Below, one piece after another: positions 36,364-52,387 of a stretch of 64,000 nucleotides of DNA. The notes under the pieces were generated by a model that saw nothing but the letters and a program-made list of their open reading frames with translations, ran no database searches and was not told where the DNA came from. Numbering within the stretch: position 1 is the stretch's first letter; each line of letters starts with the position of its first letter. A program made the translations under genes and the position numbers. The DNA comes from Eubacteriales bacterium (GTDB lineage Bacteria > Bacillota > Clostridia > Oscillospirales > CAG-272): assembly GCA_045540335.1 (NCBI GenBank), contig JAZQHC010000036.1, positions 22,092 to 86,091 of the forward strand, written 5' to 3'.

Positions 36364-36558
36364 AGCCACCCTCCTTATACGATATTACCGTATATTTTAC
36401 CACACAATAGAATCTATTTCAAGAGAAGATTCGGAAATTTAGAAAAAAACATTGAAATATACACAGAAAACCTATAAAATTTAAAATGAAAATTTTTATA
36501 CCGACTGTGCAATAAAATACCCTTTCGGTGCATTTATTATATGACAGGAGAAAATACG

Positions 36559-37143
36559 ATGTTGTATATCAAGGAATTTTCGTCGCCGAAAACAGCCGAA
36601 TACAGCAATACCGAGCGAAATGTATTGTTAGAATCGTACATTGCAACCGCCGCCGCAGGCGACACGGCAGGCATTGCAAGCTTGTATGAAGAAACGAAAA
36701 GCGCGGTATATGGTTTTGCCTTGTCTATTTTGAAAAACACCTTCGATGCCGAAGACGTTATGCACGACACGTACATTCAGGTATTTACAAACGCTTCCCT
36801 TTACAAGCCGAAGGGCACCCCCATGCCGTGGATATTGCAGATAACGAAAAATCTTGCATTTATGCTTTTGCGAAAGAAAAGCAAGCTGCAGCTATCGCAG
36901 GTGCAAGACGGTGATATTTCAGATTTTGCAGACTTTACCCAAGATGTGTGCGACGGCGTTTCCGTAACAAGCGCGATGCTGTCCCTTGGGCAAACCGAAA
37001 GGCAGATAGTAACCCTGCACGCCGTGGCAGGCTTGAAGCATAAAGAAATAGCGCGCGTGCTTGACATACCCTTGGCAACGGTGCTTTCAAAATACAATCG
37101 AGCCGTAAAAAAACTTAAAAAAATACTGGGAGATGAAAGCTGA
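36559..37143 (+). CDS. ECF sigma-70 family sigma factor
   Basis: Region 2 (AEDVMHDTYIQVF) and region 4 (HKEIARVLDIPLATVLSKYNRAVKKLKK). Start moved to M7 behind AGGAGA. Confidence 0.85.
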   Translation: MLYIKEFSSPKTAEYSNTERNVLLESYIATAAAGDTAGIASLYEETKSAVYGFALSILKNTFDAEDVMHDTYIQVFTNASLYKPKGTPMPWILQITKNLAFMLLRKKSKLQLSQVQDGDISDFADFTQDVCDGVSVTSAMLSLGQTERQIVTLHAVAGLKHKEIARVLDIPLATVLSKYNRAVKKLKKILGDES

Positions 37144-38930
37144 TGTCGGAAAAATTCGAAAAAAAATTAAAACAGGAAATAAACGATATTACCCCCGATA
37201 TTATTGACAAAGTGTTATCATCTTGCCAAGAAAAGAAAGGGGCAACCAAAATGATGCAAAAGAAAACGAAAAAGAATTATTCCGTTATTGCCGCAGCGGC
37301 TGCCGTAGTATTGATATTCGGTGCAGCCTTCGGTGCTTTCGTATATAGCGGAAACAACGCAATAGATACGGTAGTTTCTATTGATGTAAACCCCGGCGTA
37401 CAAATAACCGTAAACAAAAACGAAAAGGTTTTATCCGTTACAGCAACAAACGACGACGGCGTTCAGATACTTAAAGACCAAAACTACAAGGGCCTTCCCA
37501 TAGAAAACGCGTTAGACAGTATCGTTACGCAGCTTACCGATATGGGATACGTTGATATAAACAAAAACTCCGTTTTGGTAAGTGTTAAAAGCGGCGATAA
37601 GGAAAAATGCGAGCAAATGCGCCAAAGGCTTTCACAATGCGTGAAGGAATGCTTTGCTGAAAAAGGTGCAGATGCCGCTATATTAAGCCAATCCGTAACA
37701 GAATCATCAGACGTTTCGGGTCTTATGCAGGATTACGGTATTTCCGAAGGAAAAGCGTTGCTTGTTGACGAAATATTAAGCCAAAACAACCTGCTTACAG
37801 CAGATGAAATTGCAAATCTTCCCGTAAACGACCTTAACCTTATAATCTGCACAAACGATATGCAGCTTAAAAAGACAAACTGCACAGGCACACCCGCAGA
37901 CAAAGGCTATATAGGTAAAGACGCGGCAAAGGCTGCAGCCCTTTCCGATGCGCGCATAAGCGAAGCAGACGTACAGAAAATAAAAGTAAAAATGGATTGT
38001 GAAGACGGCATAATTACCTACGAGGTTGAATTTACCGTAAACGGCACCGAATACGAATACGAATTAAACGCAATAAACGGCGAAATAATCGATATTGATA
38101 TTGAAAAAGACGACGATGACGACGGCAAAAAAGACGATATCTCCACCCCACCTGCAGACATTATAACAAAGGAAGATGCCCTTAAAACGGCACGCGAAAA
38201 AGCGGGCGTAAGCGCAGATGATATCATTCACGAAAAAGCGTCGTTAGATAAAGACGACGGTGTTTATGAATACGAAATAGTTATTAAAACAGAAACGACA
38301 AAATATTCGTATGAAGTAAACGCATCAAACGGGCAAATAATTTCAGAAGCGATAAAAACGCTTCACGCCGGCAACGGTACAGGCAATGGCAACAGTGCAG
38401 GTAACGGAAACGGTGCCGGTAACGGTAATGGCAACGGTTCTGGAAATAAGCCCTCGCAAAATACGCATTTACAGGATTCATATATAGGCAAAGGAAAGGC
38501 CTTGAATATTGCATTGCAAAAATTCAATCTTTCATCAAACGACGTGATAAAAAGCAAAATAGGCCTTGATGAAGACGACGGCATAGTTGTATATGAAATA
38601 GATATAACGACTGCAAGCGTTAAATACGAGGTGTCGCTTAACGCTTTAACGGGCGAGATTACCGAGTTTGAGCATAAGGATATAAAATCAAACGATTCGC
38701 AAATCCAACCCCCGCAAGAAAATCTTATCAGCGAAGCAGATGCCTATAACGCGGTAATAGCACACTTCGGCATATCCGCACAAGACGTAATATCAAGCAC
38801 TGTAAAGCTTGATAAAGACGATGGGGCTTATGAATACGAGGTGGAAATAAAAACAGCCGATTTTGAATACGAGGCAAGCGTAAACCCTTCAAACGGCAAT
38901 ATAATCAAAGCGGAAAAAGATAACGACTGA
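37143..38930 (+). CDS. single-pass anti-sigma-like protein with four PepSY-type repeats
   Basis: 1-nt overlap (TGATG) with the sigma gene. Short cytoplasmic N-terminus, TM at aa 47-68, and a ~180-aa juxtamembrane domain. Then four ~65-aa repeats ending in DDG.YEYE..........N..G.I patterns. Confidence 0.7.
   Translation: MSEKFEKKLKQEINDITPDIIDKVLSSCQEKKGATKMMQKKTKKNYSVIAAAAAVVLIFGAAFGAFVYSGNNAIDTVVSIDVNPGVQITVNKNEKVLSVTATNDDGVQILKDQNYKGLPIENALDSIVTQLTDMGYVDINKNSVLVSVKSGDKEKCEQMRQRLSQCVKECFAEKGADAAILSQSVTESSDVSGLMQDYGISEGKALLVDEILSQNNLLTADEIANLPVNDLNLIICTNDMQLKKTNCTGTPADKGYIGKDAAKAAALSDARISEADVQKIKVKMDCEDGIITYEVEFTVNGTEYEYELNAINGEIIDIDIEKDDDDDGKKDDISTPPADIITKEDALKTAREKAGVSADDIIHEKASLDKDDGVYEYEIVIKTETTKYSYEVNASNGQIISEAIKTLHAGNGTGNGNSAGNGNGAGNGNGNGSGNKPSQNTHLQDSYIGKGKALNIALQKFNLSSNDVIKSKIGLDEDDGIVVYEIDITTASVKYEVSLNALTGEITEFEHKDIKSNDSQIQPPQENLISEADAYNAVIAHFGISAQDVISSTVKLDKDDGAYEYEVEIKTADFEYEASVNPSNGNIIKAEKDND
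37905..38918 (+). repeat. four in-frame PepSY-like domain repeats
   Basis: Repeat units at about 37905-38102, 38160-38351, 38478-38672 and 38721-38918 (aa 255-320, 340-403, 446-510, 527-592). Confidence 0.7.
38367..38447 (+). repeat. imperfect GGY-AAY tandem tract encoding (Gly-Asn)n linker
   Basis: Encodes GNGTGNGNSAGNGNGAGNGNGNGSGN between PepSY repeats 2 and 3. Confidence 0.85.
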
Positions 38931-38931
38931 T

Positions 38932-38985
38932 AAAAAAACAGCTACCGTACGAAAGAAACGATTCTTTCGTACGGTAGTTTTTTTA
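38932..38985. terminator. strong bidirectional terminator between convergent operons
   Basis: 16-bp stem CTACCGTACGAAAGAA / TTCTTTCGTACGGTAG flanked by A8 and T7. Confidence 0.9.
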
Positions 38986-38988
38986 AAA

Positions 38989-40068
38989 TCAATCGGGCAG
39001 CTTCATATCGCCGTCGTGTATTTTGCCCGACCTGCGAAGAAGCTCTGAAAACAAAAGGCTTAACCCCGCAGGTAAAATAAAATACATCAACGCTATTTTT
39101 ATAAGCACCTCTGTTGTGCTTGCGCCTGCGGCAGTCATATCTGCAAACGACAATATCGGCCCTACAAGCCCTGCCGTGCCCATGCCCGAGCCTGCCGCAG
39201 AGTTAGTCATTTTAAAAAGCATTGTAGAAAGCGGACCTAATATGGCACTTGCAAGTATGGGCGGAAGCCAAATTACAGGCCTTTTAATTATATTGGGCAT
39301 TTGAAGCATGCTTGTACCCAAGCCTTGCGCCAGCAAACCGCCCATTTTATTTTCTCTGTAACTGATGACGGCAAAGCCTATCATGTTTGCGCAACAGCCG
39401 ACCGTAGCCGCGCCTGCCGCAATTCCCGAAAGATTAAGTATAACGCCGATAGCAGCCGAGCTTATCGGCAGTGTTAAAAACATACCCATCAATACGGAAA
39501 CGATTATTCCCGTTAAAAACGGCTGCGACTGCACGCCGTATTCTACAAGGCTTCCAAGCCACGTATTAAAGCTTGCAATCGGTTCACCCGTTATCATACC
39601 GGCAAATCCGCCAAGCGACACAGCCACAAGCGGCGTAAGAATAATGTCTATCTTCGTGCGGCCTGCAACAAGACCGCCAAGCTCGATACACACGTACGCG
39701 GCGATAAACGCGTTCAACGGATCGCCCGCACCGGATAAAGCAATATTCTGCATTGAAGGTATCTTCGAGGCAAACGCACCGATAAATCCGCATGCCGCCG
39801 CCGAAAAAATAACAAGGGGCTTTGCATTAAGCTTTACGGCAACGCCACAGCCGATACCTGCACCCGTAGCAACCTGTGCCACAGCGCCTATATTAGAAAG
39901 TATAACGCCTGTTTGCCCGGGGATATATACGCCAAGCTGTTTTAATATAGTACCTATTATCAACGTAGAGAAAAGGCCCAACGCCATACCGGAAAGCCCG
40001 TCTATAAACAGCCTGTTTAAATAACTTTTCAAAAGCCCCCACGGGGTTCTGCTTTTTTTCTTTGCCAT
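38989..40068 (-). CDS. polytopic membrane protein, PTS EIIC-like (PTS_EIIC_2 type) permease
   Basis: 359 aa, about 10 TM, Gly/Ala-rich helices. The N-terminus LNRLFIDGLSGMALGLFSTLIIGTIL resembles the stand-alone EIIC_2 family (from memory). Confidence 0.55.
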   Translation of the reverse strand: MAKKKSRTPWGLLKSYLNRLFIDGLSGMALGLFSTLIIGTILKQLGVYIPGQTGVILSNIGAVAQVATGAGIGCGVAVKLNAKPLVIFSAAACGFIGAFASKIPSMQNIALSGAGDPLNAFIAAYVCIELGGLVAGRTKIDIILTPLVAVSLGGFAGMITGEPIASFNTWLGSLVEYGVQSQPFLTGIIVSVLMGMFLTLPISSAAIGVILNLSGIAAGAATVGCCANMIGFAVISYRENKMGGLLAQGLGTSMLQMPNIIKRPVIWLPPILASAILGPLSTMLFKMTNSAAGSGMGTAGLVGPILSFADMTAAGASTTEVLIKIALMYFILPAGLSLLFSELLRRSGKIHDGDMKLPD

Positions 40069-40122
40069 ATTTCCTCCGTAAATCTACCGTTTTAACGTGC
40101 GGTACATAGCACAAACGGAAAT

Positions 40123-40557
40123 TTACATTTTATAGATATCCTCGCCTTTAAGCAAGGCTGCCCCTGCGTTGATAAGTAATTTTTCAGCCAATTCCGTAGG
40201 AGTTGCACTTATAATAATGCACGCGTGCTTTTCATCGCCGGGGGTAAGAAAAGCGTACATATAATCTATACTTACGCCTGCACACGCCAAAAACTGCATC
40301 GCCTCGGAAAAGCTGCCGGGTCTATCCTCTATTTTTACTGCCAGCACTTCTGTAAGTGCAGTCATCAAGCCTGCTTTGCGGCAAACCTCGTCTGCCTTGT
40401 CGGGTTCGTTAACTATCAAGCGCAAAATACCGAAATCCGTCGTATCTGCGATAGACAGCGCGCGGATATTTATGCCCGCACTTGCCAAAACACGAGTGAT
40501 TTCCGCCACCCTGCCCGATTTATTTTCCATAAATATTGAAAGCTGCTTAACTCTCAT
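40123..40557 (-). CDS. tandem ACT-domain protein
   Basis: Start moved to M19 behind GGAGGA. Two ACT-like units (LSIFMENKSGRVAEITRVLASAGINI... and VKIEDRPGSFSEAMQFLACAGVSI...). Confidence 0.75.
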   Translation of the reverse strand: MRVKQLSIFMENKSGRVAEITRVLASAGINIRALSIADTTDFGILRLIVNEPDKADEVCRKAGLMTALTEVLAVKIEDRPGSFSEAMQFLACAGVSIDYMYAFLTPGDEKHACIIISATPTELAEKLLINAGAALLKGEDIYKM

Positions 40558-40576
40558 AACATCCTCCGTTATTTTA

Positions 40577-41761
40577 TTATTCTGCCGAGGGGGTCGGGTT
40601 AAAGAAATCACCCAAGCCTACCCCGCCTGCGTTATACATTACCATAACAATATCTGCCCCGATCTTCGTTGCATATTCTGCTGCGGAAAAATCTTCAATG
40701 TGGCGAAGGTCAAGAATGTGTAATTCTTTGCACGCCAAGGCAAGATAAGGCGACGTAACGCGCGAAAAACTATCCTTTATAAGAACTATTTTTTTATCGT
40801 TTACTGCTTTATGGTTCGTTATTATCTGCAGGTCGTGGTCGGCGTTAAGATATACGCTGTAATTTAATCTGCCGAACCTGACGTCAGGTGAAAAGCTTTC
40901 AAAACAGAAAACAGATTCGTAAAACGTGCCGCTTTTTTCTTCACCGCTTGTATTAACAGTCATTTCCGTATCGAATTTCGGATATATCAGCGTAAAATCA
41001 TCTACGGGGGTATAAATACGGCCAACGCGCGAGCCCTGCGAGCCTACGAAGCATTGTTCGTACGTTTCTTGCGTATAGTTATCGAGATTCGTTACTTGTT
41101 CGTCAAACACGAAGCCATAATCGTTTTTCAATTTTTCGCAAATTTTTTGGTGTGCAAAAAATCCTGCTTGGGTAGTCCAATGGTGGTCGGTTTTAAAAAA
41201 CAAATCGTAATGGTCATACCCTGCGTCGTGTATTTCTTTTTCAAAATCTATATAATCTATATCTGATTTTGATAAAAGCTGCATAAAATTCGATATATTT
41301 CTGAAGCCGCTGTATGTACCCGTGTGCAACTGGCTATCGTCTAACCTGCATACCTTTTCAGGCACTTGAAGATACAGAAAATCTATGCCGTTATTGCTTA
41401 AATAATCTTGAAAAACCTCAAGCTCTTCCAATTCGGCCGTTCCTTCAATTGCATTTTCTTCAACTGCACCGTTTGTAAGATATCCGTTTTTAAGCCTGGT
41501 AATATCAGCACCTATATCGTAAACGTAGTTTTTACCGGTTATACCGTGGTATGCACCGTTAAGGTCGATATAACTATCTCTTAAAGGGGAGTTGACAGCG
41601 TCCCTATCCTTAACGAACAAAAATATATCTTTAAGCAGCGAAAGCGATAAAGGTCTGTCTTCAAATTCTCTTACGGCGTTTTTCGTCGTATTTACACCGT
41701 ACATAACGGCAGATATACCGAGAAAAACCGTAATGAAAACAGCAAATATTTTATATTTCAT
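40577..41761 (-). CDS. AlgJ/AlgX-type (DHHW motif) SGNH-like O-acyltransferase, membrane-anchored
   Basis: 394 aa. N-terminal TM. LQVPEK and FFKTDHHWTTQAGF motifs. Lies 15 nt downstream of the MBOAT gene. Confidence 0.7.
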   Translation of the reverse strand: MKYKIFAVFITVFLGISAVMYGVNTTKNAVREFEDRPLSLSLLKDIFLFVKDRDAVNSPLRDSYIDLNGAYHGITGKNYVYDIGADITRLKNGYLTNGAVEENAIEGTAELEELEVFQDYLSNNGIDFLYLQVPEKVCRLDDSQLHTGTYSGFRNISNFMQLLSKSDIDYIDFEKEIHDAGYDHYDLFFKTDHHWTTQAGFFAHQKICEKLKNDYGFVFDEQVTNLDNYTQETYEQCFVGSQGSRVGRIYTPVDDFTLIYPKFDTEMTVNTSGEEKSGTFYESVFCFESFSPDVRFGRLNYSVYLNADHDLQIITNHKAVNDKKIVLIKDSFSRVTSPYLALACKELHILDLRHIEDFSAAEYATKIGADIVMVMYNAGGVGLGDFFNPTPSAE

Positions 41762-41776
41762 TCCATTTTCCCCCTA

Positions 41777-43171
41777 TCAGAAATTAAAGTAAATAAACGG
41801 GTTGTACGAGCCTTTGACTATACAGCTTACCGCTACTATAAACACAACTGCCAACGACAAAGGATACACGGCATCCGCTATCTTCGATGATTTTATTTTT
41901 TCGGGCAGATACTTGAAAACGGGAATACTGAATAAAATTGCAAATATAAATTCAAATTTGTTTTCCGACAGGTAGAATACGGCATGGTCGCAAATGATAC
42001 CCGAAGCACCTATACCGAACATATTCTTCATATATTCAAACGCTTGGGTTATCGTTTCTGCTCTGAAAAGCACCCAGCCCATAATAACGAAAAACAGTGT
42101 GTAAACCACGCCGAAGCCCTTCAGCTTTTCGGCAAAGCCCGTTAATTTTTCTATGGTTATCAATGCAAAATACATCAAGCCCCACAAAATAAACGTCCAG
42201 TTTGCGCCGTGCCATATGCCGGTTAAAAACCATACCGCGAACAAATTCATCACAAGGCGCGATTTTGTTTTTACGCGGCTGCCGCCGAGGGGAAAATATA
42301 CATAATCCCTGAACCACGAGCCCAACGATATATGCCATCTGCGCCAGAATTCGGAAACAGAGCGTGAAATATACGGATAATCGAAGTTTTCAAGAAAATG
42401 AAAACCGAACATCCTGCCAAGTCCGATAGCCATATCCGAATATCCAGAAAAATCGTAGAATATCTGGAACATATACGCAATAGCGCCTACCCATGCAAAC
42501 ACAACGCTTCTTTCATTTGCGCCAAACGCGGCATCTGCCGCTATTGCCAATACGTTTGAAAGCAGAACCTTTTTGCAAAAGCCGACAGCAAAGCGGCAGA
42601 TACCCTGCGAGAAATCCTCTATCGTTTCCGTGCGGTTATGTATTTCATCCGCAATGGTCTGATAACGAACTATGGGGCCTGCTATCAGCTGTGGGAAAAA
42701 CGATATGTACAGCGCAATATTCATAGGATTTTTTTGTACCTGGCCGTTACCCCTGTAAACATCTATAACGTACGACATAGCCTGAAACGTGAAAAACGAT
42801 ATTCCTATCGGCAGCGCGATAGAAGTTACGGGTACAGAAACGCCCAGCTTGTTTATGTTATCAAGCGTAAAATTGAGATATTTGAAAACGAAAAGTATCC
42901 CAAGGTTAACGACGACTGCAAGCGCTACGGACAGCTTTCCCACTTTCGGCTTTTGCCTGTTTTTATCAGCCAAAAGAGCAAGCAGCCAGTTTACGATTAT
43001 AGAGCCTATCATTACCAGAACAAACTTCGGTTCTCCCCATGCGTAGAAAAACAAGCTTGCAACGGTAAGCACAAAATTCTGCATAGCCCTGTTTTTTCTG
43101 AAGCAAAGATAATACAAGGCAAGAACTATAGGTAAAAACGCAAAAATGAATATAAGGCTTGAAAAAAGCAT
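41777..43171 (-). CDS. MBOAT family O-acyltransferase (AlgI/DltB-like)
   Basis: 464 aa, polytopic. WRRWHISLGSWFRDYVYFPLGGSR contains the conserved MBOAT His. Confidence 0.9.
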   Translation of the reverse strand: MLFSSLIFIFAFLPIVLALYYLCFRKNRAMQNFVLTVASLFFYAWGEPKFVLVMIGSIIVNWLLALLADKNRQKPKVGKLSVALAVVVNLGILFVFKYLNFTLDNINKLGVSVPVTSIALPIGISFFTFQAMSYVIDVYRGNGQVQKNPMNIALYISFFPQLIAGPIVRYQTIADEIHNRTETIEDFSQGICRFAVGFCKKVLLSNVLAIAADAAFGANERSVVFAWVGAIAYMFQIFYDFSGYSDMAIGLGRMFGFHFLENFDYPYISRSVSEFWRRWHISLGSWFRDYVYFPLGGSRVKTKSRLVMNLFAVWFLTGIWHGANWTFILWGLMYFALITIEKLTGFAEKLKGFGVVYTLFFVIMGWVLFRAETITQAFEYMKNMFGIGASGIICDHAVFYLSENKFEFIFAILFSIPVFKYLPEKIKSSKIADAVYPLSLAVVFIVAVSCIVKGSYNPFIYFNF

Positions 43172-43217
43172 TTTATCCCTCTTTTTTACACTACTGTGTT
43201 TTACTTTTGTTTATACG

Positions 43218-43793
43218 TTATTCAGCGCAGTTATAACCGTCTTCAAACGCTTTTACGTTTGTTTGCTTTGTTTTTTCGGGAACGGTTGACAATATTTTAT
43301 CTATCCATATCTGCTTGTCGATATGCAAAAACTTTGCAGCCATACCGAGAAGCGCCATATTTACCGCCTTTGCAGAGCCTGCATTTTCCGCAATGGAAAG
43401 TGCGTCTGCACAAATCGTTTTTATGCCCGTTAAGCGTATTTTTTCAATTACGTTATCGGGGTAAGAGGCTTTGCCCGTTATTACAGGCATAGGGTCTATC
43501 TTTTGCGTGTTGGTTATCAAAATTCCGTCGGGCTTAAGGTACGACAGCCAGCGTGCGGATTCAAGCTGTTCAAACGAAATAAGGATATCCGCTTCACCCT
43601 TTTCGATAACGGGTGAAAACACCTCTTCCCCGTATCTTACGTATGTAACAACGCTTCCGCCCCTTTGTGACATACCGTGAACTTCACTTACCTTTACGTC
43701 GTAATCCATGTCGGTAAATACTGCACCCATGATTTTAGAGGCAAGCAGCGTTCCTTGACCGCCCACGCCTACGATAAGTATATTTTTAACCAT
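43218..43793 (-). CDS. iorB: indolepyruvate:ferredoxin oxidoreductase subunit beta
   Basis: MVKNILIVGVGGQGTLLASK is a typical IorB start. Start moved to M25 behind AAAGGAG. An alternative ATGA-overlap start exists at 43811. Confidence 0.85.
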   Translation of the reverse strand: MVKNILIVGVGGQGTLLASKIMGAVFTDMDYDVKVSEVHGMSQRGGSVVTYVRYGEEVFSPVIEKGEADILISFEQLESARWLSYLKPDGILITNTQKIDPMPVITGKASYPDNVIEKIRLTGIKTICADALSIAENAGSAKAVNMALLGMAAKFLHIDKQIWIDKILSTVPEKTKQTNVKAFEDGYNCAE

Positions 43794-43807
43794 CGTTTTT
43801 ACTCCTT

Positions 43808-45544
43808 TCATCTTTCGATTGCGCCAAGCTTGCACGCATACGTGCAAACGCCGCATCCGAGACATTGATTCGGGTCGATAACGGCTTTGTTTTTACCGTT
43901 TTCACCCTTCTTTACGGATATTGCGGGGCAACCGCAGGACAAACACATTTTGCACCCGATACATTTATCGTTAACCTTAAGGGGCGCAGGGTGCTTTATG
44001 CCTTTAAGCAACGCACACGGACGGCGCGAAATAATAAGCGACGGTTCGTTTGCGTTCATTTCCTCTTCTACCACTTTTCTTACACCGTCAACATCGAAGG
44101 GGTCAACCACCTGTATGCGTTTGATGCCTATCGCCCTTGCAAGTGCCTCTATATCTACTGCAGAGGTGGGGTCGCCTTTTATGGTAAGACCGTTTGCAGG
44201 GTTGTTTTGGTGGCCCGTCATACCGGTGATGGAGTTATCCAACACAACAACGGTGGAAAAGCCTTTGTTATATACGATATCTATCAATCCCGTAATACCC
44301 GAATGGATAAACGTTGAATCGCCTATAACGGCAAGCGAATTTTTACTTTCTGTACCGAGTGCCTTGTTGTATCCGTGAAGTGCGGAAACGGAAGCACCCA
44401 TACAAATACAAGCGTCAACACCCGATAACGGTGCAGAAGCGCCAAGCGTGTAACAGCCTATATCACCGCTTACGTACGGATTATATTTTTTAATTGCGTA
44501 ATAAAATCCTCTGTGGGGACAGCCGGCACACAAAACGGGCGGGCGGGCGGGAATTTCTTCCGGGAATTCTACCATTTGCGCTTTTTCGCCGCTTACTGCC
44601 GCTTTTACGGTTGCCTGCGAAAATTCGCCAAGCATAGAGAATATCTTTTTACCCGTAACGGCGATGCCGTTTTTAAGGCAATGGTCTTCTATAATACTGT
44701 CAAGCTCTTCAACAACGTACAATTCATCTACCTTTGATGCAAAATCCTTGATAATATCAACAGGCAGAGGATTTACCATACCAAGCTTCAGATAGCTTGC
44801 TTCGTTTCCAAACGCTTCCCTTGCATAGTTGTACGTAGTGCCGGCACAAATGAAGCCCTTTTTGGTTGAAAAATATTCAACCTTATTGATGGGGCAGTTT
44901 TCTGCCCATTGTGCCATTTCCGCCATGCGTTTTTCAACGTGAACGTGGCGCGGGCGTGCCATTGCAGGCATCATTACGTGCTTCATTACGTCTTTTTCGT
45001 ATTTTACGGTTTCACGTTCTTCCCTTTCGCCAAGCTGTACCAAAGAACGAGAGTGCGATATTCTTGTAGAAAGGCGAAGCAAAACGGGTGTGTCGTATTT
45101 TTCTGAAAGCTCGTATGCCAAAACCGTAAAATCACGGCATTCGGCAGAGTTTGACGGCTCTAACATAGGAACCTTTGCACCTATTGCATGGCGGCGGGAA
45201 TCCTGCTCGTTTTGAGACGAGTGCATACCGGGGTCGTCTGCAACGGCACACACAAGGCCGCCCTTTACGCCTATGTAAGACATTGTGTAAAGCGGGTCGG
45301 CGGCAACGTTCAAGCCGACGTGCTTCATAGCGCAAAAGCTTCTTACCCCGCCGATAGATGCGCCCGAAGCAACTTCAAACGCTACCTTTTCGTTGGGCGC
45401 CCATTCGCTGTACATTTCTTCATATTTTGATGCAACCTCTGTAATTTCCGTGCTGGGTGTACCCGGATATGAGGAGATTACCTTTACGCCTGCCTCGTAA
45501 AGACCGCGGGCAACCGCCTCGTTGCCTAAAAGCAATGTTTTCAT
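43808..45544 (-). CDS. iorA: indolepyruvate:ferredoxin oxidoreductase subunit alpha
   Basis: 578 aa. TPP-binding GDSTF..GITG region and two C-terminal 4Fe-4S motifs (CIGCKMC..CGCP; CLGCGVCTYAC). Confidence 0.9.
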   Translation of the reverse strand: MKTLLLGNEAVARGLYEAGVKVISSYPGTPSTEITEVASKYEEMYSEWAPNEKVAFEVASGASIGGVRSFCAMKHVGLNVAADPLYTMSYIGVKGGLVCAVADDPGMHSSQNEQDSRRHAIGAKVPMLEPSNSAECRDFTVLAYELSEKYDTPVLLRLSTRISHSRSLVQLGEREERETVKYEKDVMKHVMMPAMARPRHVHVEKRMAEMAQWAENCPINKVEYFSTKKGFICAGTTYNYAREAFGNEASYLKLGMVNPLPVDIIKDFASKVDELYVVEELDSIIEDHCLKNGIAVTGKKIFSMLGEFSQATVKAAVSGEKAQMVEFPEEIPARPPVLCAGCPHRGFYYAIKKYNPYVSGDIGCYTLGASAPLSGVDACICMGASVSALHGYNKALGTESKNSLAVIGDSTFIHSGITGLIDIVYNKGFSTVVVLDNSITGMTGHQNNPANGLTIKGDPTSAVDIEALARAIGIKRIQVVDPFDVDGVRKVVEEEMNANEPSLIISRRPCALLKGIKHPAPLKVNDKCIGCKMCLSCGCPAISVKKGENGKNKAVIDPNQCLGCGVCTYACKLGAIER

Positions 45545-45557
45545 ATTATTATTTCCT

Positions 45558-46754
45558 TTACTTTAATATTTCTTCTATATTGGCTTCGCTTAATAAATGT
45601 ATTACGTAATCAGGTGTGTGTGCTTCAAACGCTTCTTCATCTATGCTGTGCTGCCACATTGGCTGCATATATACGGATGAAAAATCGTCGCACAGAAATT
45701 TCATTATACCGGTGGAAAAAGAATCACGTACGAACAAGCAATCGGGGTATTCGGTGTTTTCCGTTTTTACCGTATATGCAGTGCGTATATGCGCGCCCTG
45801 AAGCGCGTATGGCTTTACCTTTTCGTATAACGGATTTTCGTTTGTAAAATTCGGGGTGAGAAAATAGGCAGCCTCTGCATAGGCTTCTTTACCGTCGGGT
45901 ATAAAATTTCCCGCTATGCAGGATACGCTTTCTATTTTAAAATCATCTTCCGTATGCGTTTGTATATGCGGAAAATCTGCCTTTATTATCTTATGAAGCT
46001 CGCAATATGCGGCAAACGATGCATATTCTGTCCAATGGGTGTCCGTTTGATATACAAGCGGATATCCTTTATTCTTCGCTTGCACAAGCACGTCTGTAAG
46101 GTCTATATACGTTATATCGGCAGATTTCAGGGCGTTGCCCAACTGCGTTCTTAACGATACTGAACCCTTTTTAAGGTGCTTAGGCGCATATTCTTCGTAT
46201 AATGTCTGCGGATTGGGAACAACGGCAATTATCAATTTTGAATTATGGGATTTTACGTATTCGTTTCTTTGCTTCAGGATTTTCACAAGATACCGAAGTG
46301 CGTTTTCGTCTAACGCGCTTTCGCCCGTATAATCTTCTATATGCGATTTTAAAAACAACTGCGAATTTTCCCCTGCGTAAAAATCAACAAATTCTTTATT
46401 ACAAGTGCCGCCTACCGTTACTTTTGCACTCGCGTTACCGCAAGATATTAAATATTCGGTATTTTTATTTTCTTCTGCCGTAACGGATACGAAAAACACA
46501 CCGTTTCTTGCCTGTGCGGAATACTTATTTTCTCCGCACACGGCAAAAACCGTATTTTTCGAGCACATACCGCCTATTACCGCCGTTTGTTTATCCACAT
46601 AGTAAACGCCGTTTATTAAAAGCGTATCTTCTTCTTTAACCGTGGTTTCATTATCTTGGCTTTGTACATCAGACGTATCCGTGCCGTTTTGCACGTTTTG
46701 TGTACATGCACACAAGAAAATTAAAAGCACCAACAGAAAAACCAGCCTTTTCAT
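45558..46754 (-). CDS. AlgJ/AlgX-type (DTHW motif) SGNH-like acyltransferase lipoprotein
   Basis: 398 aa. Signal peptide with lipobox (LLIFLCAC). VVPNPQTLY and YQTDTHWTEYASF motifs parallel the 40577-41761 paralog. Confidence 0.65.
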   Translation of the reverse strand: MKRLVFLLVLLIFLCACTQNVQNGTDTSDVQSQDNETTVKEEDTLLINGVYYVDKQTAVIGGMCSKNTVFAVCGENKYSAQARNGVFFVSVTAEENKNTEYLISCGNASAKVTVGGTCNKEFVDFYAGENSQLFLKSHIEDYTGESALDENALRYLVKILKQRNEYVKSHNSKLIIAVVPNPQTLYEEYAPKHLKKGSVSLRTQLGNALKSADITYIDLTDVLVQAKNKGYPLVYQTDTHWTEYASFAAYCELHKIIKADFPHIQTHTEDDFKIESVSCIAGNFIPDGKEAYAEAAYFLTPNFTNENPLYEKVKPYALQGAHIRTAYTVKTENTEYPDCLFVRDSFSTGIMKFLCDDFSSVYMQPMWQHSIDEEAFEAHTPDYVIHLLSEANIEEILK

Positions 46755-46772
46755 TACAGAACCGACCTTTGA

Positions 46773-48095
46773 TTATTGATTTCTTAAATCTACTACCCTT
46801 TTTGCTTTTCCAACGAATCTTTCTATGCTTTTCGGTTCTGCTAAAGTAACCTTTATTTCAATACCGAGGATAGCCTTGATTCTGTCGTGTACCTTTCTTT
46901 GAAGGGCTTCCAATTCGCCGTAGCGTGCCAGCAGGCTTCCGTCTGCCAATTCAACCTTAACCTCAAGGTTGTCTGCGTACCCTTCTCTGCGTACGATAAG
47001 CTGGTAGTGGGGGGATATCTGCGACATACCTATCAACGCGCTTTCCACCTGCGTGGGGAATACGTTTACACCCCTTATTTTAAGCATATCGTCGCTTCTG
47101 CCTATTATCTTGCTCATCCTTGCGGTGGTTCTTCCGCAAAGGCACGTTTCGTAGTTTATGTTCGTTATATCCTTCGTTCTGTAACGAAGCATTGGTATGC
47201 CCTTTTTGGTAAGGTTTGTTACCACAAGCTCGCCCGTAGAGCCCTTAGGCATAACATCGCCCGTAGTTGAATCTATTATTTCGCACAGAAAATGGTCTTC
47301 GTTTATATGCAAGCCGTTTCTGTAAATACATTCGCCCGACATACCGGGGCCGTTAAGCTCGCTCATTCCGTAGTTGTCGGTCGCAAAGAAGCCGTTGCCC
47401 CACTTTTGTTCTACCTCGTTACGCATTTCGGGGGTGCAGCCCTCGCTTCCGAGAAGGCCCAATTTAAGCTTATAATTATCCATGGGAAATTCGATACTTC
47501 TTTCGCGTGCCGCCTCTGCAAGGTATATACAGTACGAGGGCGTTGCCACGATGGTATCCGTACCGAAATCGCGCATAAATTTAAGCTGCTTTTCCGTATT
47601 GCCCGACGAGGTGGGAACAACGGTTGCCCCTATTCTTTCAAGCCCGTAATGCAAGCCAAGCGCACCTGTAAACATACCGTATCCAAAGCATATCTGAACG
47701 ATACTTTCATCCGTTGCGCCTGCGGCAACGACAAGGCGTGCCATCTGTTCTGCCCAGTTATCAAGGTCTTCCCTTGTGTAGCCCACTACCGTGGGGTTGC
47801 CCGTAGTACCTGATGATGCGTGGATACGCACGATATCCTTCATAGGTGCGCCGAACATTTTGAAGGGGTAATTATCCCTAAGGTCCGTTTTGGTTGTATA
47901 GGGAATATATTCAATATCGGACAGTGTTTTTATCTTATCCGCCGTAACGCCTGCCTTTTCCAGTCTTTCGTGGTAAAATGGCACGTTGTTATAGCAATAA
48001 TCAACCATTGCCTTCAGGCGTTGAAGCTGTAAGGCTTCCAATTCTGCGCGGGGCATACACTCCGCGTCTTTATTGTAGATATTTATTTTTGACAT
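46773..48095 (-). CDS. paaK: phenylacetate--CoA ligase family (PaaK-type aryl-acetate adenylating enzyme)
   Basis: 440 aa. HASSGTTGNPTV (AMP-binding P-loop), YGMSE, and a C-terminal ACT-like lid typical of PaaK. Confidence 0.85.
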   Translation of the reverse strand: MSKINIYNKDAECMPRAELEALQLQRLKAMVDYCYNNVPFYHERLEKAGVTADKIKTLSDIEYIPYTTKTDLRDNYPFKMFGAPMKDIVRIHASSGTTGNPTVVGYTREDLDNWAEQMARLVVAAGATDESIVQICFGYGMFTGALGLHYGLERIGATVVPTSSGNTEKQLKFMRDFGTDTIVATPSYCIYLAEAARERSIEFPMDNYKLKLGLLGSEGCTPEMRNEVEQKWGNGFFATDNYGMSELNGPGMSGECIYRNGLHINEDHFLCEIIDSTTGDVMPKGSTGELVVTNLTKKGIPMLRYRTKDITNINYETCLCGRTTARMSKIIGRSDDMLKIRGVNVFPTQVESALIGMSQISPHYQLIVRREGYADNLEVKVELADGSLLARYGELEALQRKVHDRIKAILGIEIKVTLAEPKSIERFVGKAKRVVDLRNQ

Positions 48096-48114
48096 TATCG
48101 GTTCTCCCTTCGGA

Positions 48115-49629
48115 TCACTTTACTTTTACAGAATAAAATTCTTCGTTTACTTCTTTCGTTTTGTTTATACCGTTATATATCAGTGTACCTGCCGCGCACA
48201 AAACGAAGGACAATATCATTGAAGCACACGCAAAGTGTGCGCCCATTGCGGAAATAGCCACGGGTGTGCCGAAAATATTCAAAGAAGCGGAAAAACCGCC
48301 CAGCTTGCACACCAATGGGGGCAATGCGGTGCAAAAGCCGCCTATGATACCGCACCAAGCACCTACACGGTTAAGCTTTTTCCAGAAAAGCGATAAAATA
48401 TACGGTGCCATAAACGAGCCTGAAATAATCCCCCACGAATACGACATCATATCAAGTATGGGCGTATCAGTAAAGGCAATAATGAAAGACATTACGATAA
48501 ATATAATCGAAAGTGCCTTGCATATTATACCAACCTTAAACGGCGATGCTTTTTTTGCAATATACGGCTGTACGAAATCCATCGTAAGCGTCGTAGATGC
48601 CGTTATCGTAATTGAAGAAAGCGTAGAAACGGATGCGGATATCAAAAGCACCACAACGATGCCCAGAAGTATCGTGGGGATTTCTGCCACGTCAAGCATA
48701 TTGGGAATAACGTAATCCTTACCGCCTTCGGGCAATTCGTTAAAGAACAAGCGCGAAAGCGAACCTATAAAGTATCCGCCGCCTGCGATAATAAGGCAAA
48801 ACAGCGTTGATATTATCGTACCGCGCTTTACCTCCGCCTTATCCTTTATGCCGTAGTATTTATGTACCATTTGCGGCAATCCCCACGTGCCGAATGAGGT
48901 CATTAAAACAGTACCCCACAAAGCAAGATGATTTGCCGCTGTAAGATTAAGCTCTTCCGTTTTTTGTACGATAGCCTGCATGCCGTTAGCAAAGCCGCCT
49001 ACCTGCTGCGTTCTGAATATTACCACAATAAGCGCGATAACACCGCCTATCATTATAAACCCCTGCAAAAAGTCTGCCTTTAAAGTTGCCGCGTATCCGC
49101 CAAGCACAACAAGTATTGCTGCCACGCACGCTATAAGCACACAGCACAGCACGTCGGGAATACCCAAAACTACCGAGCAAATGCTTGTAAGGCCCTTATA
49201 AACAGAAGCGGAATACGGAATTAAAAATATGAAAATAACAAAAACGCAAAACTGCTTCATCACGTTGTCGTTAAAGCGTTTATGGAAAAACTGCGGCATC
49301 GAGCGTATATCGTGCCGTTTGGTTATATCCCTCGTTCTGTTAGCAAGCACGAGCCACGCAAACAAAGCACCGAAAATCGCATTGCCGACACCGGGCAGAA
49401 CGCCCCAGATACCGTAATCCCATCCTGTCGAGCCTGCATATCCTATAAACATTACGGCTGAAAAATACGCCGTACCGTACGAAAAGGCGGAAAGCCACGC
49501 ACCTGCATTACGCTTGCCGACAGCAAAGTCGTCTGCGTTTTTGGCAGAACGGCTAGATAAAACGCCTACTATTATCATCACCGTCAAATAGATTGCGATG
49601 GTGATATATATCACCGTTTCCTTACCCAT
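48115..49629 (-). CDS. sodium:solute symporter family transporter
   Basis: 504 aa, about 13 TM, SSF-like N-terminal pattern (DDFAVGKRNAGAWLSAFSYGTAYFSAV). Confidence 0.8.
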   Translation of the reverse strand: MGKETVIYITIAIYLTVMIIVGVLSSRSAKNADDFAVGKRNAGAWLSAFSYGTAYFSAVMFIGYAGSTGWDYGIWGVLPGVGNAIFGALFAWLVLANRTRDITKRHDIRSMPQFFHKRFNDNVMKQFCVFVIFIFLIPYSASVYKGLTSICSVVLGIPDVLCCVLIACVAAILVVLGGYAATLKADFLQGFIMIGGVIALIVVIFRTQQVGGFANGMQAIVQKTEELNLTAANHLALWGTVLMTSFGTWGLPQMVHKYYGIKDKAEVKRGTIISTLFCLIIAGGGYFIGSLSRLFFNELPEGGKDYVIPNMLDVAEIPTILLGIVVVLLISASVSTLSSITITASTTLTMDFVQPYIAKKASPFKVGIICKALSIIFIVMSFIIAFTDTPILDMMSYSWGIISGSFMAPYILSLFWKKLNRVGAWCGIIGGFCTALPPLVCKLGGFSASLNIFGTPVAISAMGAHFACASMILSFVLCAAGTLIYNGINKTKEVNEEFYSVKVK

Positions 49630-49663
49630 ATCAAACCTCTCAAAACCTATGTATATTTAAGTA

Positions 49664-50212
49664 TTATCTTCCTTTTTTGTTTTTCTTTTGCGGCAAAAGC
49701 GCAATTCCCTGATAACCGAGATAATACGTAAAGAATATCACAAAAACAGAGAAAAGCGGCGTTATCGTATATGAAAACGGGTTTGAATTTATATCCGCGC
49801 CGTTGATAACTATGTTTTTGAAAATACCCATATAAAAGCCCTGTATCACGCGCAAGCCTGCGTTGGCTACCGTATATACACCCTCTGCCTTTTCACCGAT
49901 AAAGTAGGAAACAAGCGTTATTACCGAAAGTATAAAGTTAGGTATATTTGCCGCAAGGCCGATATAAACGGGCTTGGCAAAATTTTTTCTTGCCCTGTGG
50001 GCATCTACCCTTATACGGTCCTTACCGCCAAGCGTCCACATAAAATCGTACACAATGAACATATAAAGCAAAACACCGGCCAACCCCGCACAAAACATTA
50101 AAACATCGTTTTCAAGGGTTGCCCCAACGGTAATTATACCGAATATAGACATTGCAAACTGTGTTAAGAATAACTTCAGGGCATCATACCCCGAGGATTT
50201 AAAAAAAGACAT
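49664..50212 (-). CDS. hypothetical 5-TM membrane protein
   Basis: Start moved to M11 behind AGGAGGA. Hydrophobic helices throughout. No family recognised. Confidence 0.5.
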   Translation of the reverse strand: MSFFKSSGYDALKLFLTQFAMSIFGIITVGATLENDVLMFCAGLAGVLLYMFIVYDFMWTLGGKDRIRVDAHRARKNFAKPVYIGLAANIPNFILSVITLVSYFIGEKAEGVYTVANAGLRVIQGFYMGIFKNIVINGADINSNPFSYTITPLFSVFVIFFTYYLGYQGIALLPQKKNKKGR

Positions 50213-50336
50213 TATTCCTCCTGTTGATTGCCGTATCAGCAAAAATATTTACACTTATACATTATAAAACATTTTATATATATATGTACAGAAATAAACG
50301 ATTAACAAAATTTAAATATAAATCAAATATCGCGCT

Positions 50337-51554
50337 TTATTTTCTTTTTCGTTTAAATAAGCAAAGCGCCATTACCAACGGAAAGAATATCGAACAGGCA
50401 ATACCGCACTTTAAAGCTATTTGCTCTGCCCCCATATTTGCAAAAAATACCGCTTGCGACAGCGTTTCGGTATGCTTTATCGCCGCATCAGACACGGCAC
50501 CCGCTATCCATGGGCCTACCGAACAACCGATATCGCCCATTACCGAAAGCAGTGCGAACATCGCCGCACCGCCTTTTGGAAAATCCTCTCCCGCGGCGGC
50601 AACGGTACCGGGCCACATCAAGGCAACGGAAATACCGCACAAAGCACAAGCGATAAGCGAAACTACGCCGTTATTAACGAAGCATATCAAAGCGTACGAC
50701 ACAACGCACAGGTATGCAGATGCAAAAAGCACTTTTTTTAAATTTATTCTTTCGCCGAATACGCCGTAAAGCGTTCTGCACACTGCCATACACAAGGCAA
50801 ACGCGCACATACCGAACAGGTCGCCTGCAAGCTTTGGCATTTGCAGCCCTTTTTCTGCAAAAAAAGATACCCACTGCGCTATCGTTTGTTCTGCCGCACC
50901 CGAGCATACCATAACCACCATAGCCACCGCAAAGCCCTTTGCCGTTACTATTTTACCAAGCGAAACGTTTTTTTCCGAAGGTGCGATTTTCGGCAGCGGA
51001 ACCTTAAAAAACATAACAAGCGCGATTATCGGAACAGACGCCCACGCTATCGGTATAATATTTGCGCTGTTTTGAAAAAAGTGCAAGCACAACGTGGATA
51101 TAAGGCAAACGCAAACGTGTCCCCAGCAATAAAACGAATGCAGCAGCGGTATTTCCACCTTCGTATTCGTATCGGGTATTTCTGATACCACGGGGTTAAG
51201 CAGCACCTCTATCAAGCCGCCGCCGACGGAATATATCACCACGGCAACCACAAGCCCTATATACGGGCTGAATAAGGTTGGAAAAACGACAAGCCCGCAT
51301 AACCCCGCGGCACACATGGCGTGTGCCGCTATAAGCTGGGCGCGCAACGGCAATCTGCCCGACAGCCTTACACAAACAACGTCGGTGCATATCTGAACGC
51401 CGAAATTTATAAAAATAAGCCGCCCCAACTCTTCATACGAAAGGCCCAGACTGTTTTGAAAAGATACGAAAAGCAATGGGGCAAGATTTATAACGATCGC
51501 CTGCGTAAAAAAGCCGAGATAGCAGGCGATCTTTGTATTTTTAAAACTTTTCAT
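50337..51554 (-). CDS. MFS transporter
   Basis: 405 aa, 12 predicted TM, two 6-helix halves. ATGA overlap with the SDR gene. Confidence 0.8.
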   Translation of the reverse strand: MKSFKNTKIACYLGFFTQAIVINLAPLLFVSFQNSLGLSYEELGRLIFINFGVQICTDVVCVRLSGRLPLRAQLIAAHAMCAAGLCGLVVFPTLFSPYIGLVVAVVIYSVGGGLIEVLLNPVVSEIPDTNTKVEIPLLHSFYCWGHVCVCLISTLCLHFFQNSANIIPIAWASVPIIALVMFFKVPLPKIAPSEKNVSLGKIVTAKGFAVAMVVMVCSGAAEQTIAQWVSFFAEKGLQMPKLAGDLFGMCAFALCMAVCRTLYGVFGERINLKKVLFASAYLCVVSYALICFVNNGVVSLIACALCGISVALMWPGTVAAAGEDFPKGGAAMFALLSVMGDIGCSVGPWIAGAVSDAAIKHTETLSQAVFFANMGAEQIALKCGIACSIFFPLVMALCLFKRKRK

Positions 51555-52372
51555 TTTTTATCCTCTTTACCGAAGACGTCGGAAAATAAGCCCGTTTTCA
51601 GGGCAGAAAGTACCCCCTTGTAAACCTTGCCCGAAAACGCCGGGCAGATATTTGAAAACGCCGTCATACACACGGCGTCAACGCTTGGAAACATCAACGG
51701 TACGCCAAGCTGCACGCCGTTTACTATGCGCCTTGCTATAACGCTTTTATCTGTTGAAATAAGGTCTATCAACGGGTGGCCGTCTTGCTTTTGATGGCGC
51801 ATTATGTCGGTTTTAGAAAATCCCGGGCAAACGAGGGATACGAAAATATCCTCTTCCTGCGCAAGGGCGCGCGTAAAATCCGCCAGCGCCGCCTTGCTTG
51901 CAGAATAAGCGCACGTGCCCGCCAAGGGCGAAAACGCCGCACTGCTTGAAACGTTTACGATACACCCCTTTTGTGCTTTAAGCATGGGCAAAAACACCTC
52001 GCACCCGTAAACCGCAGACATAAAATTTACGTTCATAACGGCTTGTACCTTGTCGGAATCGGTATTTTCAAATCTGCCGAACGGCGGAAGCTGACCTGCG
52101 CAATTTATCAGCACTTGAACGCGTATGCCGTTTTTTTCTATCCGGGCAAAAAGCCTTTGCCATTCTGATTTTTCTGAAACGTCAAGCAAAAAAAACTTAA
52201 AATTCGCCATTTTCTTGCCAAGCGACCTGCAAAAGCGAATCATTTTTTCGCGGCTTCTGCCGATACCGATAACCCTGCAATTATATTCGTTTATAAGTAT
52301 TTTCGCAATTTCGCCGCCGAAGCCGCCCGTTACACCCGTTAAAACAACGGTTTTTCCGTTAAGATCGTACAT
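51551..52372 (-). CDS. classical short-chain dehydrogenase/reductase (SDR)
   Basis: TGVTGGFGGEIA (TGxxxGxG), NCAG, YSASKAA (YxxxK). Confidence 0.85.
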   Translation of the reverse strand: MYDLNGKTVVLTGVTGGFGGEIAKILINEYNCRVIGIGRSREKMIRFCRSLGKKMANFKFFLLDVSEKSEWQRLFARIEKNGIRVQVLINCAGQLPPFGRFENTDSDKVQAVMNVNFMSAVYGCEVFLPMLKAQKGCIVNVSSSAAFSPLAGTCAYSASKAALADFTRALAQEEDIFVSLVCPGFSKTDIMRHQKQDGHPLIDLISTDKSVIARRIVNGVQLGVPLMFPSVDAVCMTAFSNICPAFSGKVYKGVLSALKTGLFSDVFGKEDKK

Positions 52373-52387
52373 ACTTACACCAATTAC

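Follow-up and report, generated by a model that had tools for sequence, protein, structure and literature searches.

Ten co-directional genes on the minus strand of a 64,000-nucleotide stretch of contig JAZQHC010000036.1 from a Eubacteriales bacterium (positions 22,092 to 86,091 of the contig; hereafter the window) bring together enzymes of aromatic-acid metabolism and a machinery for envelope O-acylation. According to our analysis, this cluster (38989-50242) probably comprises two separable systems in one transcription unit, with a PatA/PatB-type O-acyl island nested in an operon for the assimilation of aromatic acids. This view is built on direct observations, namely the families of the genes and their catalytic motifs, the conservation of the arrangement in relatives, its polymorphism, and the purifying selection acting on the island genes. 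The genes and signals of the cluster are the following:

TGTACA-18-TATAAT, 50261-50290, minus strand: promoter-like site, a putative operon promoter by consensus match only
Gene 1, 49664-50212, minus strand: 182-residue multi-pass membrane protein (the five-transmembrane or 5TM protein) of an unannotated family, first operon gene in the clade
Gene 2, 48115-49629, minus strand: Na+/solute symporter (Pfam SSF, 3e-39), part of the ancestral module
Gene 3, 46773-48095, minus strand: PaaK-type AMP-forming aryl-acetate-CoA ligase with AMP-binding and AMP-binding_C_2 domains
Gene 4, 45558-46754, minus strand: lipoprotein (lipobox LCAC) with an AlgJ/AlgX-like SGNH domain, the island gene at 'position A'
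Gene 5, 43808-45544, minus strand: IorA, alpha subunit of indolepyruvate (arylpyruvate):ferredoxin oxidoreductase
Gene 6, 43218-43793, minus strand: IorB, the beta subunit, with its true start at MVKNIL according to homologues; 5' conserved flank of the island
Gene 7, 41777-43171, minus strand: MBOAT of the PatA/AlgI class (Pfam MBOAT, 1.4e-30, above cut-off)
Gene 8, 40577-41761, minus strand: N-terminally anchored SGNH O-acyltransferase of the DHHW family, a PatB1 homologue
Gene 9, 40123-40557, minus strand: tandem-ACT protein with its true start at MRVKQL (Pfam ACT_8, 1.5e-29); 3' conserved flank of the island
Gene 10, 38989-40068, minus strand: permease of the PTS_EIIC_2 family (Pfam PF13303, 1.4e-96), the last gene before the terminator
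Intrinsic terminator, bidirectional, 38940-38979, both strands: 18-bp stem with T-runs on each strand, ending the transcription unit

The preliminary description of this DNA, made from the sequence alone, had proposed ten closely packed genes, each with its own Shine-Dalgarno sequence and with no intrinsic terminator ahead of the hairpin at the cluster end, and in these respects it was accurate. With starts picked from the window's list of open reading frames (ORFs) by Shine-Dalgarno motif and homologue length, the gaps from gene 1 to gene 10 measure 34, 19, 18, 13, 14, 46, 15, 19 and 54 nt, exactly as given there, and a purine-rich motif precedes all ten starts, that of gene 4 being the weakest. 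The hairpin at 38940-38979 is the sole strong terminator; the terminator-like matches on the minus strand within the cluster have stems of 5-8 bp and all fall in coding sequence. The putative promoter lies in an AT-rich gap of 124 nt 5' of gene 1. Promoter-like matches are not more numerous in the region than expected from shuffled sequence, and one of them, a 10/12 match at 43321-43294, is situated ~120 nt upstream of the MBOAT gene. An Rfam scan at gathering thresholds of the window and of three related loci (L005, L007 and L017) returned no leader, riboswitch or T-box for the operon. In L007, L008 and L010 the 5TM gene is preceded by a gene of opposite orientation, which supports the 5TM gene as the first of the unit. 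The genes of the island and those of the aryl module are probably co-transcribed. The earlier family calls were likewise borne out by Pfam and NCBIfam, the first gene being the only one without a family.

The conserved histidines of gene 7, in WHG (His 321) and WHISL, align with the histidine motifs of DltB (6bug/8jem), and its C-terminus, ...NPFIYFNF, carries the hexapeptide FIYFNF (residues 459-464, nt 41780-41797), an instance of the FxYxxF motif. This hexapeptide is kept in 6/6 clade MBOATs and 4/6 outgroup MBOATs, and the variant in L012, FIYSNF, still fits FxYxxF. In PatA, acetyl from acetyl-CoA is taken over by the Tyr of FxYxxF through auto-acetylation and handed on to the SGNH partner PatB, and MBOATs with a fused FxYxxF rely on acyl-CoA, dispensing with both a carrier protein and DltX (PMC12148441). 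The fused C-terminal motif therefore suggests that gene 7 takes acyl-CoA directly, with no carrier protein. It thereby resolves a puzzle of the preliminary description, which had recognized the logic of a dlt operon in the cluster while finding room for no carrier protein. Indeed, no such ORF fits the gaps, but the MBOAT belongs to the acyl-CoA-using PatA/AlgI class rather than to DltB, scoring 164.8 bits against the DltB equivalog TIGR04091 (cut-off 375). Like Dlt, the cluster joins an adenylate-forming ligase, an MBOAT and an anchored SGNH-like protein in one operon, and it probably shares with Dlt the chemistry of the acyl-Tyr shuttle. However, it is not a Dlt system: beyond the low DltB score, neither a DltC nor a DltX ORF can be placed in gaps of at most 54 nt, the ligase is of the CoA-forming PaaK family and not DltA, and gene 7 possesses extra C-terminal helices and the fused shuttle motif which DltB lacks.

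Gene 8 adjoins the MBOAT gene, 15 nt downstream of it, and matches Bacillus cereus PatB1 (PDB 5v8e) at 1.5e-17 over residues 114-387 (~270), following an N-terminal transmembrane helix. All three motifs align, DHHW at 192-195, the Ser of DSF at 330-332 and DLRH at 351-354. Both Pfam ALGX and Pfam DHHW recognize the protein, the latter at 25.3 bits against a cut-off of 25, and since block V (DHHW), block II (DxR(Y/H)) and the Ser are all in place, it can be counted among the DHHW family (PF14286), of which PatB1 is the founding member, an O-acetyltransferase of the secondary cell-wall polysaccharide in B. cereus (PMC9487903). Gene 4 matches ALGX (5e-16, 59.5 bits against a cut-off of 26.5) and AlgJ (4o8v) at 1.5e-5 over about 95 residues. 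It has DTHW at 238-241 and the Ser of DSF at 344-346, lacks the DxR block, and reaches only 15.9 of the 25 bits required for DHHW; by these matches it is to be filed as AlgJ/AlgX-like, not DHHW. The catalytic residues are kept in both proteins, as are D-x-H-W and D-S in 18/18 SGNH genes of the clade. The GC content at third codon positions is 0.40 in genes 4 and 8 and 0.44-0.52 in the aryl genes. Family, motif and structure matches, together with the literature (PMC12148441; PMC9487903), thus agree with the earlier proposal that the MBOAT forms one half, and its AlgJ/AlgX/DHHW partners the other, of a machinery for glycan O-acylation.

Among the aryl genes, genes 5 and 6 lie adjacent, 14 nt apart, and exceed their equivalog cut-offs, IorA with 710.8 bits against TIGR03336 (cut-off 650.9) and IorB with 279 bits against NF005325 (cut-off 230). 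Gene 3 stays below the PaaK equivalog TIGR02155 (503.6 bits, cut-off 646.3) and is, judged by its sequence, a member of the PaaK-like aryl-acetate ligase family, with phenylacetate, indoleacetate and hydroxyphenylacetate as candidate substrates; its identity is 86-90% inside the clade and falls to ~80% in the closest outgroups. The symporter, gene 2, falls under every NCBIfam equivalog cut-off, its best match being the proline symporter PutP, far below cut-off, and it would import an aromatic acid or an aromatic amino acid. The tandem-ACT protein, likely an amino-acid-binding regulator, is encoded by the gene that closes the ancestral aryl module: in outgroups and in relatives devoid of the island, its gene follows directly 3' of IorB, at 1-12 nt or 72 nt.

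Relatives were retrieved by an MBOAT scan of species-representative genomes, which yielded 11 loci, and were annotated by tblastn with the window proteins. In five of these loci (L005, L006, L007, L008, L010) the MBOAT is 79-81% identical to gene 7, and all five have one common layout, 5TM-SSS-PaaK-[AlgJ-like]-IorA-IorB-[DHHW]-MBOAT-DHHW(x1-3)-ACT, as have L001 and L002, which were found through gene 4. They derive from uncultured metagenome-assembled genomes (MAGs) from animal guts, labelled Eubacteriales, Clostridia or Oscillospiraceae. The interleaving is shared by the clade's GTDB species representatives (5/5 MAGs) and by numerous contigs from metagenomes; it is therefore no chance juxtaposition in one genome but real and inherited, and the arrangement reported in the preliminary description is conserved rather than a one-off rearrangement. 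Within the clade, the metabolic enzymes are 83-90% identical, the MBOAT about 80%, and the SGNH partners 31-59%. Gene 4, for which a word-based search found only 4 homologues, is confined to subclade A and shows 54-59% identity in L001, L002, L005 and L006, versus 86-88% for IorA.

Outside the clade, the two gene sets part company. None of six distant MBOAT loci (36-61% identity) contains PaaK or Ior genes in the examined flanks, while in at least five of the six an SGNH gene accompanies the MBOAT; the contig of L009 stops in an unidentified ORF just downstream. Their neighbours are unrelated (GNAT, MCP, purF-like, DUF3048, radical-SAM), and MBOAT-SGNH pairs of 48-61% identity stand alone among unrelated housekeeping genes. 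Conversely, a metagenome scan with PaaK gave 78 loci, none of which has MBOAT or SGNH genes. In the nearest outgroups by ACT identity (61-63%; L095-L098, L099-L101, L102, plus L016), PaaK, IorA, IorB and ACT are contiguous, as they are in many farther loci, which bears out the earlier notion of iorAB-paaK-ACT as a recurrent and widespread module; in L102, the SSF gene overlaps paaK by 4 nt. Our comparisons place symporter-PaaK-IorA-IorB-ACT as the ancestral unit, into which the MBOAT and SGNH genes were apparently inserted later, in one narrow clade, and suggest that the association of the MBOAT with the aryl operon arose once.

Even within this clade the island is facultative. In the interval between IorB and ACT, 18 clade contigs have an island and four (L017, L107, L108, L110) have none. 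L017 encodes an IorA 96-97% identical to that of L007, L008 and L010 and has the same glmS/glmM synteny downstream, yet ACT directly follows IorB; the same junction is seen in L107. One and the same ACT protein (P0009, 100% identical) is encoded behind IorB in L108 and L110 and behind a DHHW gene in L109. The preliminary description had named contiguous iorAB-ACT genes in close relatives as an argument against a link between the two sets, and this is in part what we find, in these four contigs. The junction of L017 does not look like a simple deletion of an island of the L007 type, and the cassette-less alleles may be either ancestral or secondary.

Where present, the island is hypervariable in its partners. 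At least five deeply separated lineages, with mutual identities of 28-45%, make up the SGNH genes, which occur in 1-4 copies per genome. Only one of them is conserved, the post-MBOAT partner of L005, L007 and L008 (about 81%), and gene 8 is not orthologous to it (42-45% identity). Beside one identical ACT protein (P0006), three architectures are found:

First architecture: MBOAT-C-[57-residue MBOAT 3' remnant]-D-E
Second architecture: B-MBOAT-D
Third architecture: carries a different DHHW lineage

The 57-residue remnant of the MBOAT 3' end, located between DHHW genes at L112:7404-7577 (equal to L005:12663-12812) and seen also in L113, L114, L116 and L118, retains the last transmembrane helix and an intact ...NPFIYFNF. 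It is joined to the following SGNH gene through the 12-nt junction that also follows the full-length MBOAT, and starts at a GTG with no clear Shine-Dalgarno sequence. It could be duplication debris or a stand-alone acyl-shuttle microprotein resembling DltX.

A comparison of L007 with L008 shows purifying selection on every gene; the ratio of nonsynonymous to synonymous substitution (dN/dS) is 0.04 in the MBOAT and lies at 0.07-0.15 in the partners, which argues for a functional island. At the same time, synonymous divergence (dS) is mosaic, ranging from 0.03 in partner B over 0.70 in the MBOAT to 0.98 in ACT, which points to recombination. The segment of partner B (L007:8681-9874), with its dS of 0.03 versus 0.18-0.98 in the neighbours, seems to have been exchanged very recently between two species-level lineages.

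The operon accepts unrelated inserts as well. In L008 alone, a gene for a 456-residue lipoprotein with a CAP (cysteine-rich secretory protein) domain (L008:3248-4618) lies co-directionally between symporter and paaK. The site between PaaK and IorA, which holds the AlgJ-like lipoprotein gene in subclade A, is occupied in subclade B by a spacer of 244-442 nt of non-coding, palindrome-rich DNA:

PaaK-IorA spacers: L007:6023-6328, L008:5997-6329, L010:6173-6416, L017:1063-1504

The spacer of L017 includes two copies of an element of ~36 nt, GTAGGGACAGACGTCCTCGRCTGTCCGCATTAAACG. Such elements may be akin to repetitive extragenic palindromes or miniature inverted-repeat transposable elements; no remnants of the gene 4 family were found in the subclade B spacers (240-440 nt).

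What would the two systems do? In the scenario we favour, the ancestral operon would have been [5TM]-SSS-PaaK-IorA-IorB-ACT. Its symporter would import an aromatic acid, be it phenylacetate, indoleacetate or 4-hydroxyphenylacetate, which the AMP-forming PaaK-type ligase would convert into aryl-acetyl-CoA. IorAB would interconvert arylpyruvate and aryl-acetyl-CoA plus CO2 and reduced ferredoxin, the net direction most plausibly being reductive carboxylation, an assimilatory route towards aromatic amino acids. Independently, the MBOAT would take an acyl group from cytoplasmic acyl-CoA, most simply acetyl-CoA as in the PatA/PatB mechanism, and auto-acylate the Tyr of its C-terminal FIYFNF on the outer face of the membrane. 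There, the catalytic Ser of gene 8 or of gene 4, both extracytoplasmic, would receive the acyl group, and the two enzymes would esterify acceptors that are presumably surface glycans. Such an island would have entered a single gut clade of Clostridia/Oscillospirales-like bacteria, once, with IorB and ACT as its conserved flanks, and would since have been gained, lost and reshuffled by recombination, so that one conserved MBOAT would serve a changing repertoire of partners with probably different acceptors.

When six in-cluster MBOATs were aligned with six unlinked ones, 87 columns were invariant and none showed a fixed difference between the groups, in a comparison of low power; only two changes came near fixation, both conservative. 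The facultative, hypervariable nature of the island and the lack of fixed differences in its MBOAT favour a self-contained island drawing on a universal donor, and this donor is probably acetyl-CoA. The preliminary description had set its central hypothesis against a null of two unrelated modules brought together by rearrangement. It is this null that our results favour, in a refined form: the second module is a hypervariable island which is nested and maintained in the operon.

Several observations weigh against this picture. The test for fixed differences is weak, with six sequences against six and no structure of the donor tunnel, and donor and acceptor are assigned, unlike those of PatA/PatB, from homology alone. 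The island is kept in the operon across both subclades and at three intergenic positions, and the AlgJ-like gene, an independent acquisition, took up a place between paaK and iorA, not beside the MBOAT; given this retention and placement, some selective advantage of co-expression with the aryl genes is possible. The 5TM gene is clade-specific too, leaving a part of the system unexplained. The assimilatory direction, too, may be questioned, since PaaK-type ligases work reversibly in vitro and indolepyruvate oxidoreductase (IOR) runs oxidatively in other gut bacteria.

The last point leads to an alternative in which the aryl module is catabolic: aromatic amino acids would be imported and transaminated, IorAB would decarboxylate the products oxidatively, and aryl-acetates would be released, with the PaaK-type enzyme running in reverse or only recycling CoA. 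IOR-type enzymes have been tied to arylpyruvate oxidation and to the production of phenylacetate and indoleacetate in gut anaerobes (PMC13285125), and the match of the symporter to PutP, distant as it is, makes an amino-acid substrate possible. However, fermentative routes from arylpyruvate to arylacetate conserve ATP through a phosphotransacylase and a kinase, or through ADP-forming synthetases (PMC13285125), while the ligase here is AMP-forming. Its pairing with the symporter, to the point of a 4-nt overlap in L102, follows a logic of uptake and activation. Moreover, the phenylacetate permeases of Pseudomonas paa/pha clusters are of the SSS family, and rumen bacteria carboxylate phenylacetate to phenylalanine. 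With an AMP-forming ligase and an importer in the ancestral unit, a sequence of uptake, CoA activation and reductive carboxylation is the more plausible, as in Methanococcus maripaludis, which converts aryl acids into aromatic amino acids by an IOR-dependent assimilatory route cited in PMC4162585. The catabolic alternative, and with it the fermentative direction assumed in the preliminary description, is thus possible but doubtful; aryl-acetyl-CoA is an intermediate in either direction.

A second alternative retains acetyl-CoA as the donor but holds that the position of the island has been selected, so that surface O-acetylation would be induced along with the import of aromatic acids; it might, for instance, report on conditions in the gut lumen or, via the regulator of the operon, on amino-acid status. 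This would account for the retention of the island through extensive reshuffling and for the placement of the independently acquired gene 4 inside the operon, and it agrees with the purifying selection on the island genes, the lack of a strong internal terminator and the chance-level number of promoter-like sites. On the other hand, the search for a regulator, riboswitch or T-box of the operon gave none, the 10/12 match ahead of the MBOAT gene leaves room for independent expression, and the presence/absence polymorphism within a species indicates that coupling is not required. The CAP-domain gene in the operon of L008, in turn, suggests permissive sites rather than selected placement. We therefore regard a selected position as unlikely.

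Finally, the central hypothesis of the preliminary description was that aryl-acetyl-CoA from PaaK/IorAB is the donor of the MBOAT, giving phenylacetyl or indoleacetyl esters on surface polymers in one integrated pathway. The tight co-directional packing, the retention inside the operon in 5/5 species-representative genomes of the clade and the placement of island genes at three different intergenic sites could be taken in its favour, and for an MBOAT of the acyl-CoA-using class (FxYxxF), aryl-acetyl-CoA is chemically admissible. A dedicated ligase beside an MBOAT pair does occur elsewhere: in a distant locus from a Lentisphaeria MAG (L014:8712-12949), an SGNH gene (ALGX/DHHW) and an MBOAT gene are followed without a gap, in translational coupling, by a generic AMP-binding ligase (stop at 11476, start at 11477). 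The ligase-MBOAT-SGNH triad in this MAG is an independent one; its MBOAT ends in ...TFMYQQ, not FxYxxF, and no carrier protein was found in the 350 nt available downstream of the ligase. Against the hypothesis, neither the 6 MBOAT loci nor the more than 80 PaaK/Ior loci of the outgroups show an independent recurrence of the association, and MBOAT-SGNH homologues elsewhere have no PaaK or Ior nearby. The island is dispensable, being absent from four clade contigs, some of which encode an ACT protein identical to that of a cassette-bearing contig, and the in-cluster MBOATs display not a single fixed residue change. The characterized relatives PatA and PatB1 transfer acetyl (PMC12148441; PMC9487903), a literature search gave no precedent for aryl-acetyl esters on bacterial glycans, and a search for MBOATs in connection with indolepyruvate or PaaK found nothing relevant. 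With the island absent from some close relatives, a single origin of the association and no fixed substitutions, the hypothesis is not supported and is very improbable, and there is equally little to recommend its extension that the variable SGNH partners place phenylacetyl or indoleacetyl groups from the PaaK/IorAB pool of aryl-acetyl-CoA on different surface glycans.

How does a nested, self-contained island compare with known systems? PatA/PatB carries out peptidoglycan O-acetylation in Neisseria and Campylobacter. With it, and with PatA1/PatB1, gene 7 shares the catalytic His, the fused FxYxxF and the independence of a carrier protein; the adjacent extracytoplasmic SGNH partner with its N-terminal anchor is another feature in common with PatA/PatB, and gene 8 keeps the DHHW motif, the Ser nucleophile and the DxR oxyanion block of PatB1 (5v8e). 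In contrast to PatA/PatB, one MBOAT is combined here with one to four divergent partners of two SGNH subtypes, the DHHW type and the AlgJ-like lipoprotein, which turn over between strains, and the set is nested in a metabolic operon instead of standing alone or in a polysaccharide locus. The combination of one MBOAT with several partners of the AlgX fold is reminiscent of AlgI/AlgJ/AlgX(/AlgF), WssH/WssI and CcsH/CcsI, and gene 4 resembles AlgJ in its matches to the ALGX family and to 4o8v, with D-x-H-W plus a Ser completing the triad. Unlike in alginate and cellulose O-acetylation, however, there are no genes for polysaccharide synthesis or export nearby and no AlgF, the host is of the Gram-positive type, with a lipoprotein and transmembrane anchors, and the partners are not orthologues of AlgJ or AlgX. 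The aryl module, for its part, has the same four genes in the same order, ACT last, as the PaaK-IorAB-ACT module of anaerobes, including the IOR route of M. maripaludis, but envelope-acylation genes split it at two or three intergenic points, and the gene of a clade-specific membrane protein precedes it.

If the nested-island reading is true, a hypervariable island for surface modification can be housed within the conserved frame of a metabolic operon, and a single PatA-type MBOAT can work with SGNH transferases whose assortment changes. Such knowledge would be of use in reading strain-level envelope variation in uncultured gut Clostridia, and the acyl-Tyr shuttle model would come to cover MBOAT-SGNH systems of the one-to-many type. 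The locus also calls for caution, as tight operon packing alone is no proof of substrate channelling: the packing is conserved here, although the insertion is facultative and the relatives of its genes function away from such neighbours. Were aryl esters formed after all, this would be important, since aromatic acyl decoration of bacterial envelopes has no known precedent and would link diet- or host-derived aromatic acids to cell-surface chemistry.

The genes at the two ends of the cluster differ in their relation to the conserved unit. Gene 1 would start at TTG 50242 on the range given in the preliminary description (38989-50242); most likely it begins at ATG 50212 instead, as AGGAGG is found upstream of this codon and the resulting 182 residues fit the 176-182 of its homologues. 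It is 54-71% identical in L005, L007, L008 and L010 and absent from the outgroup L102, and its only remote homologue findable by word search sits in an unrelated context; within this operon, the 5TM gene is thus clade-specific. A profile search extends the family to 609 clusters at 50% identity, with proteins of ~180-200 residues and near-invariant Q18, Y55, W59, G62, A88, N92, Y127, G129, Y163 and G166. No match was obtained in Pfam, NCBIfam, PHROG or PDB, even with a profile of 61 sequences. Weak matches to Bac_rhodopsin in 7 of the 61 members (best 4e-5) are probably compositional, and the AlphaFold model is poor (predicted local distance difference test score, pLDDT, 45.7). An unannotated protein of 193 residues encoded between two ALGX genes in L003/L004 was considered as a relative and rejected, there being no homology. 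At the other end, gene 10 had been listed as a member of the cluster, but no tblastn match to it was obtained in any related locus, where the cluster stops at ACT; the permease is lineage-specific and falls outside the conserved unit.

Directly upstream of the cluster, a further group of genes is co-directional with it:

aroQ (type II dehydroquinase)-SDR-MFS transporter, 50337-52819, minus strand: gaps of 15 and -4 nt

A gene of the shikimate pathway thus adjoins the aryl-acid operon, and the aroQ-MFS synteny is also present in L005. A T-box leader (Rfam RF00230, 115 bits; 29856-30097, minus strand), unrelated to the cluster, lies upstream of minus-strand genes from ~29705. Convergent with the cluster, and served by the same bidirectional terminator, is a plus-strand pair (36541-38930) in which the gene for a sigma factor of the extracytoplasmic function type overlaps by 1 nt that for a 595-residue RsgI-like anti-sigma factor with three PepSY domains and a low-complexity (N-G)n linker.

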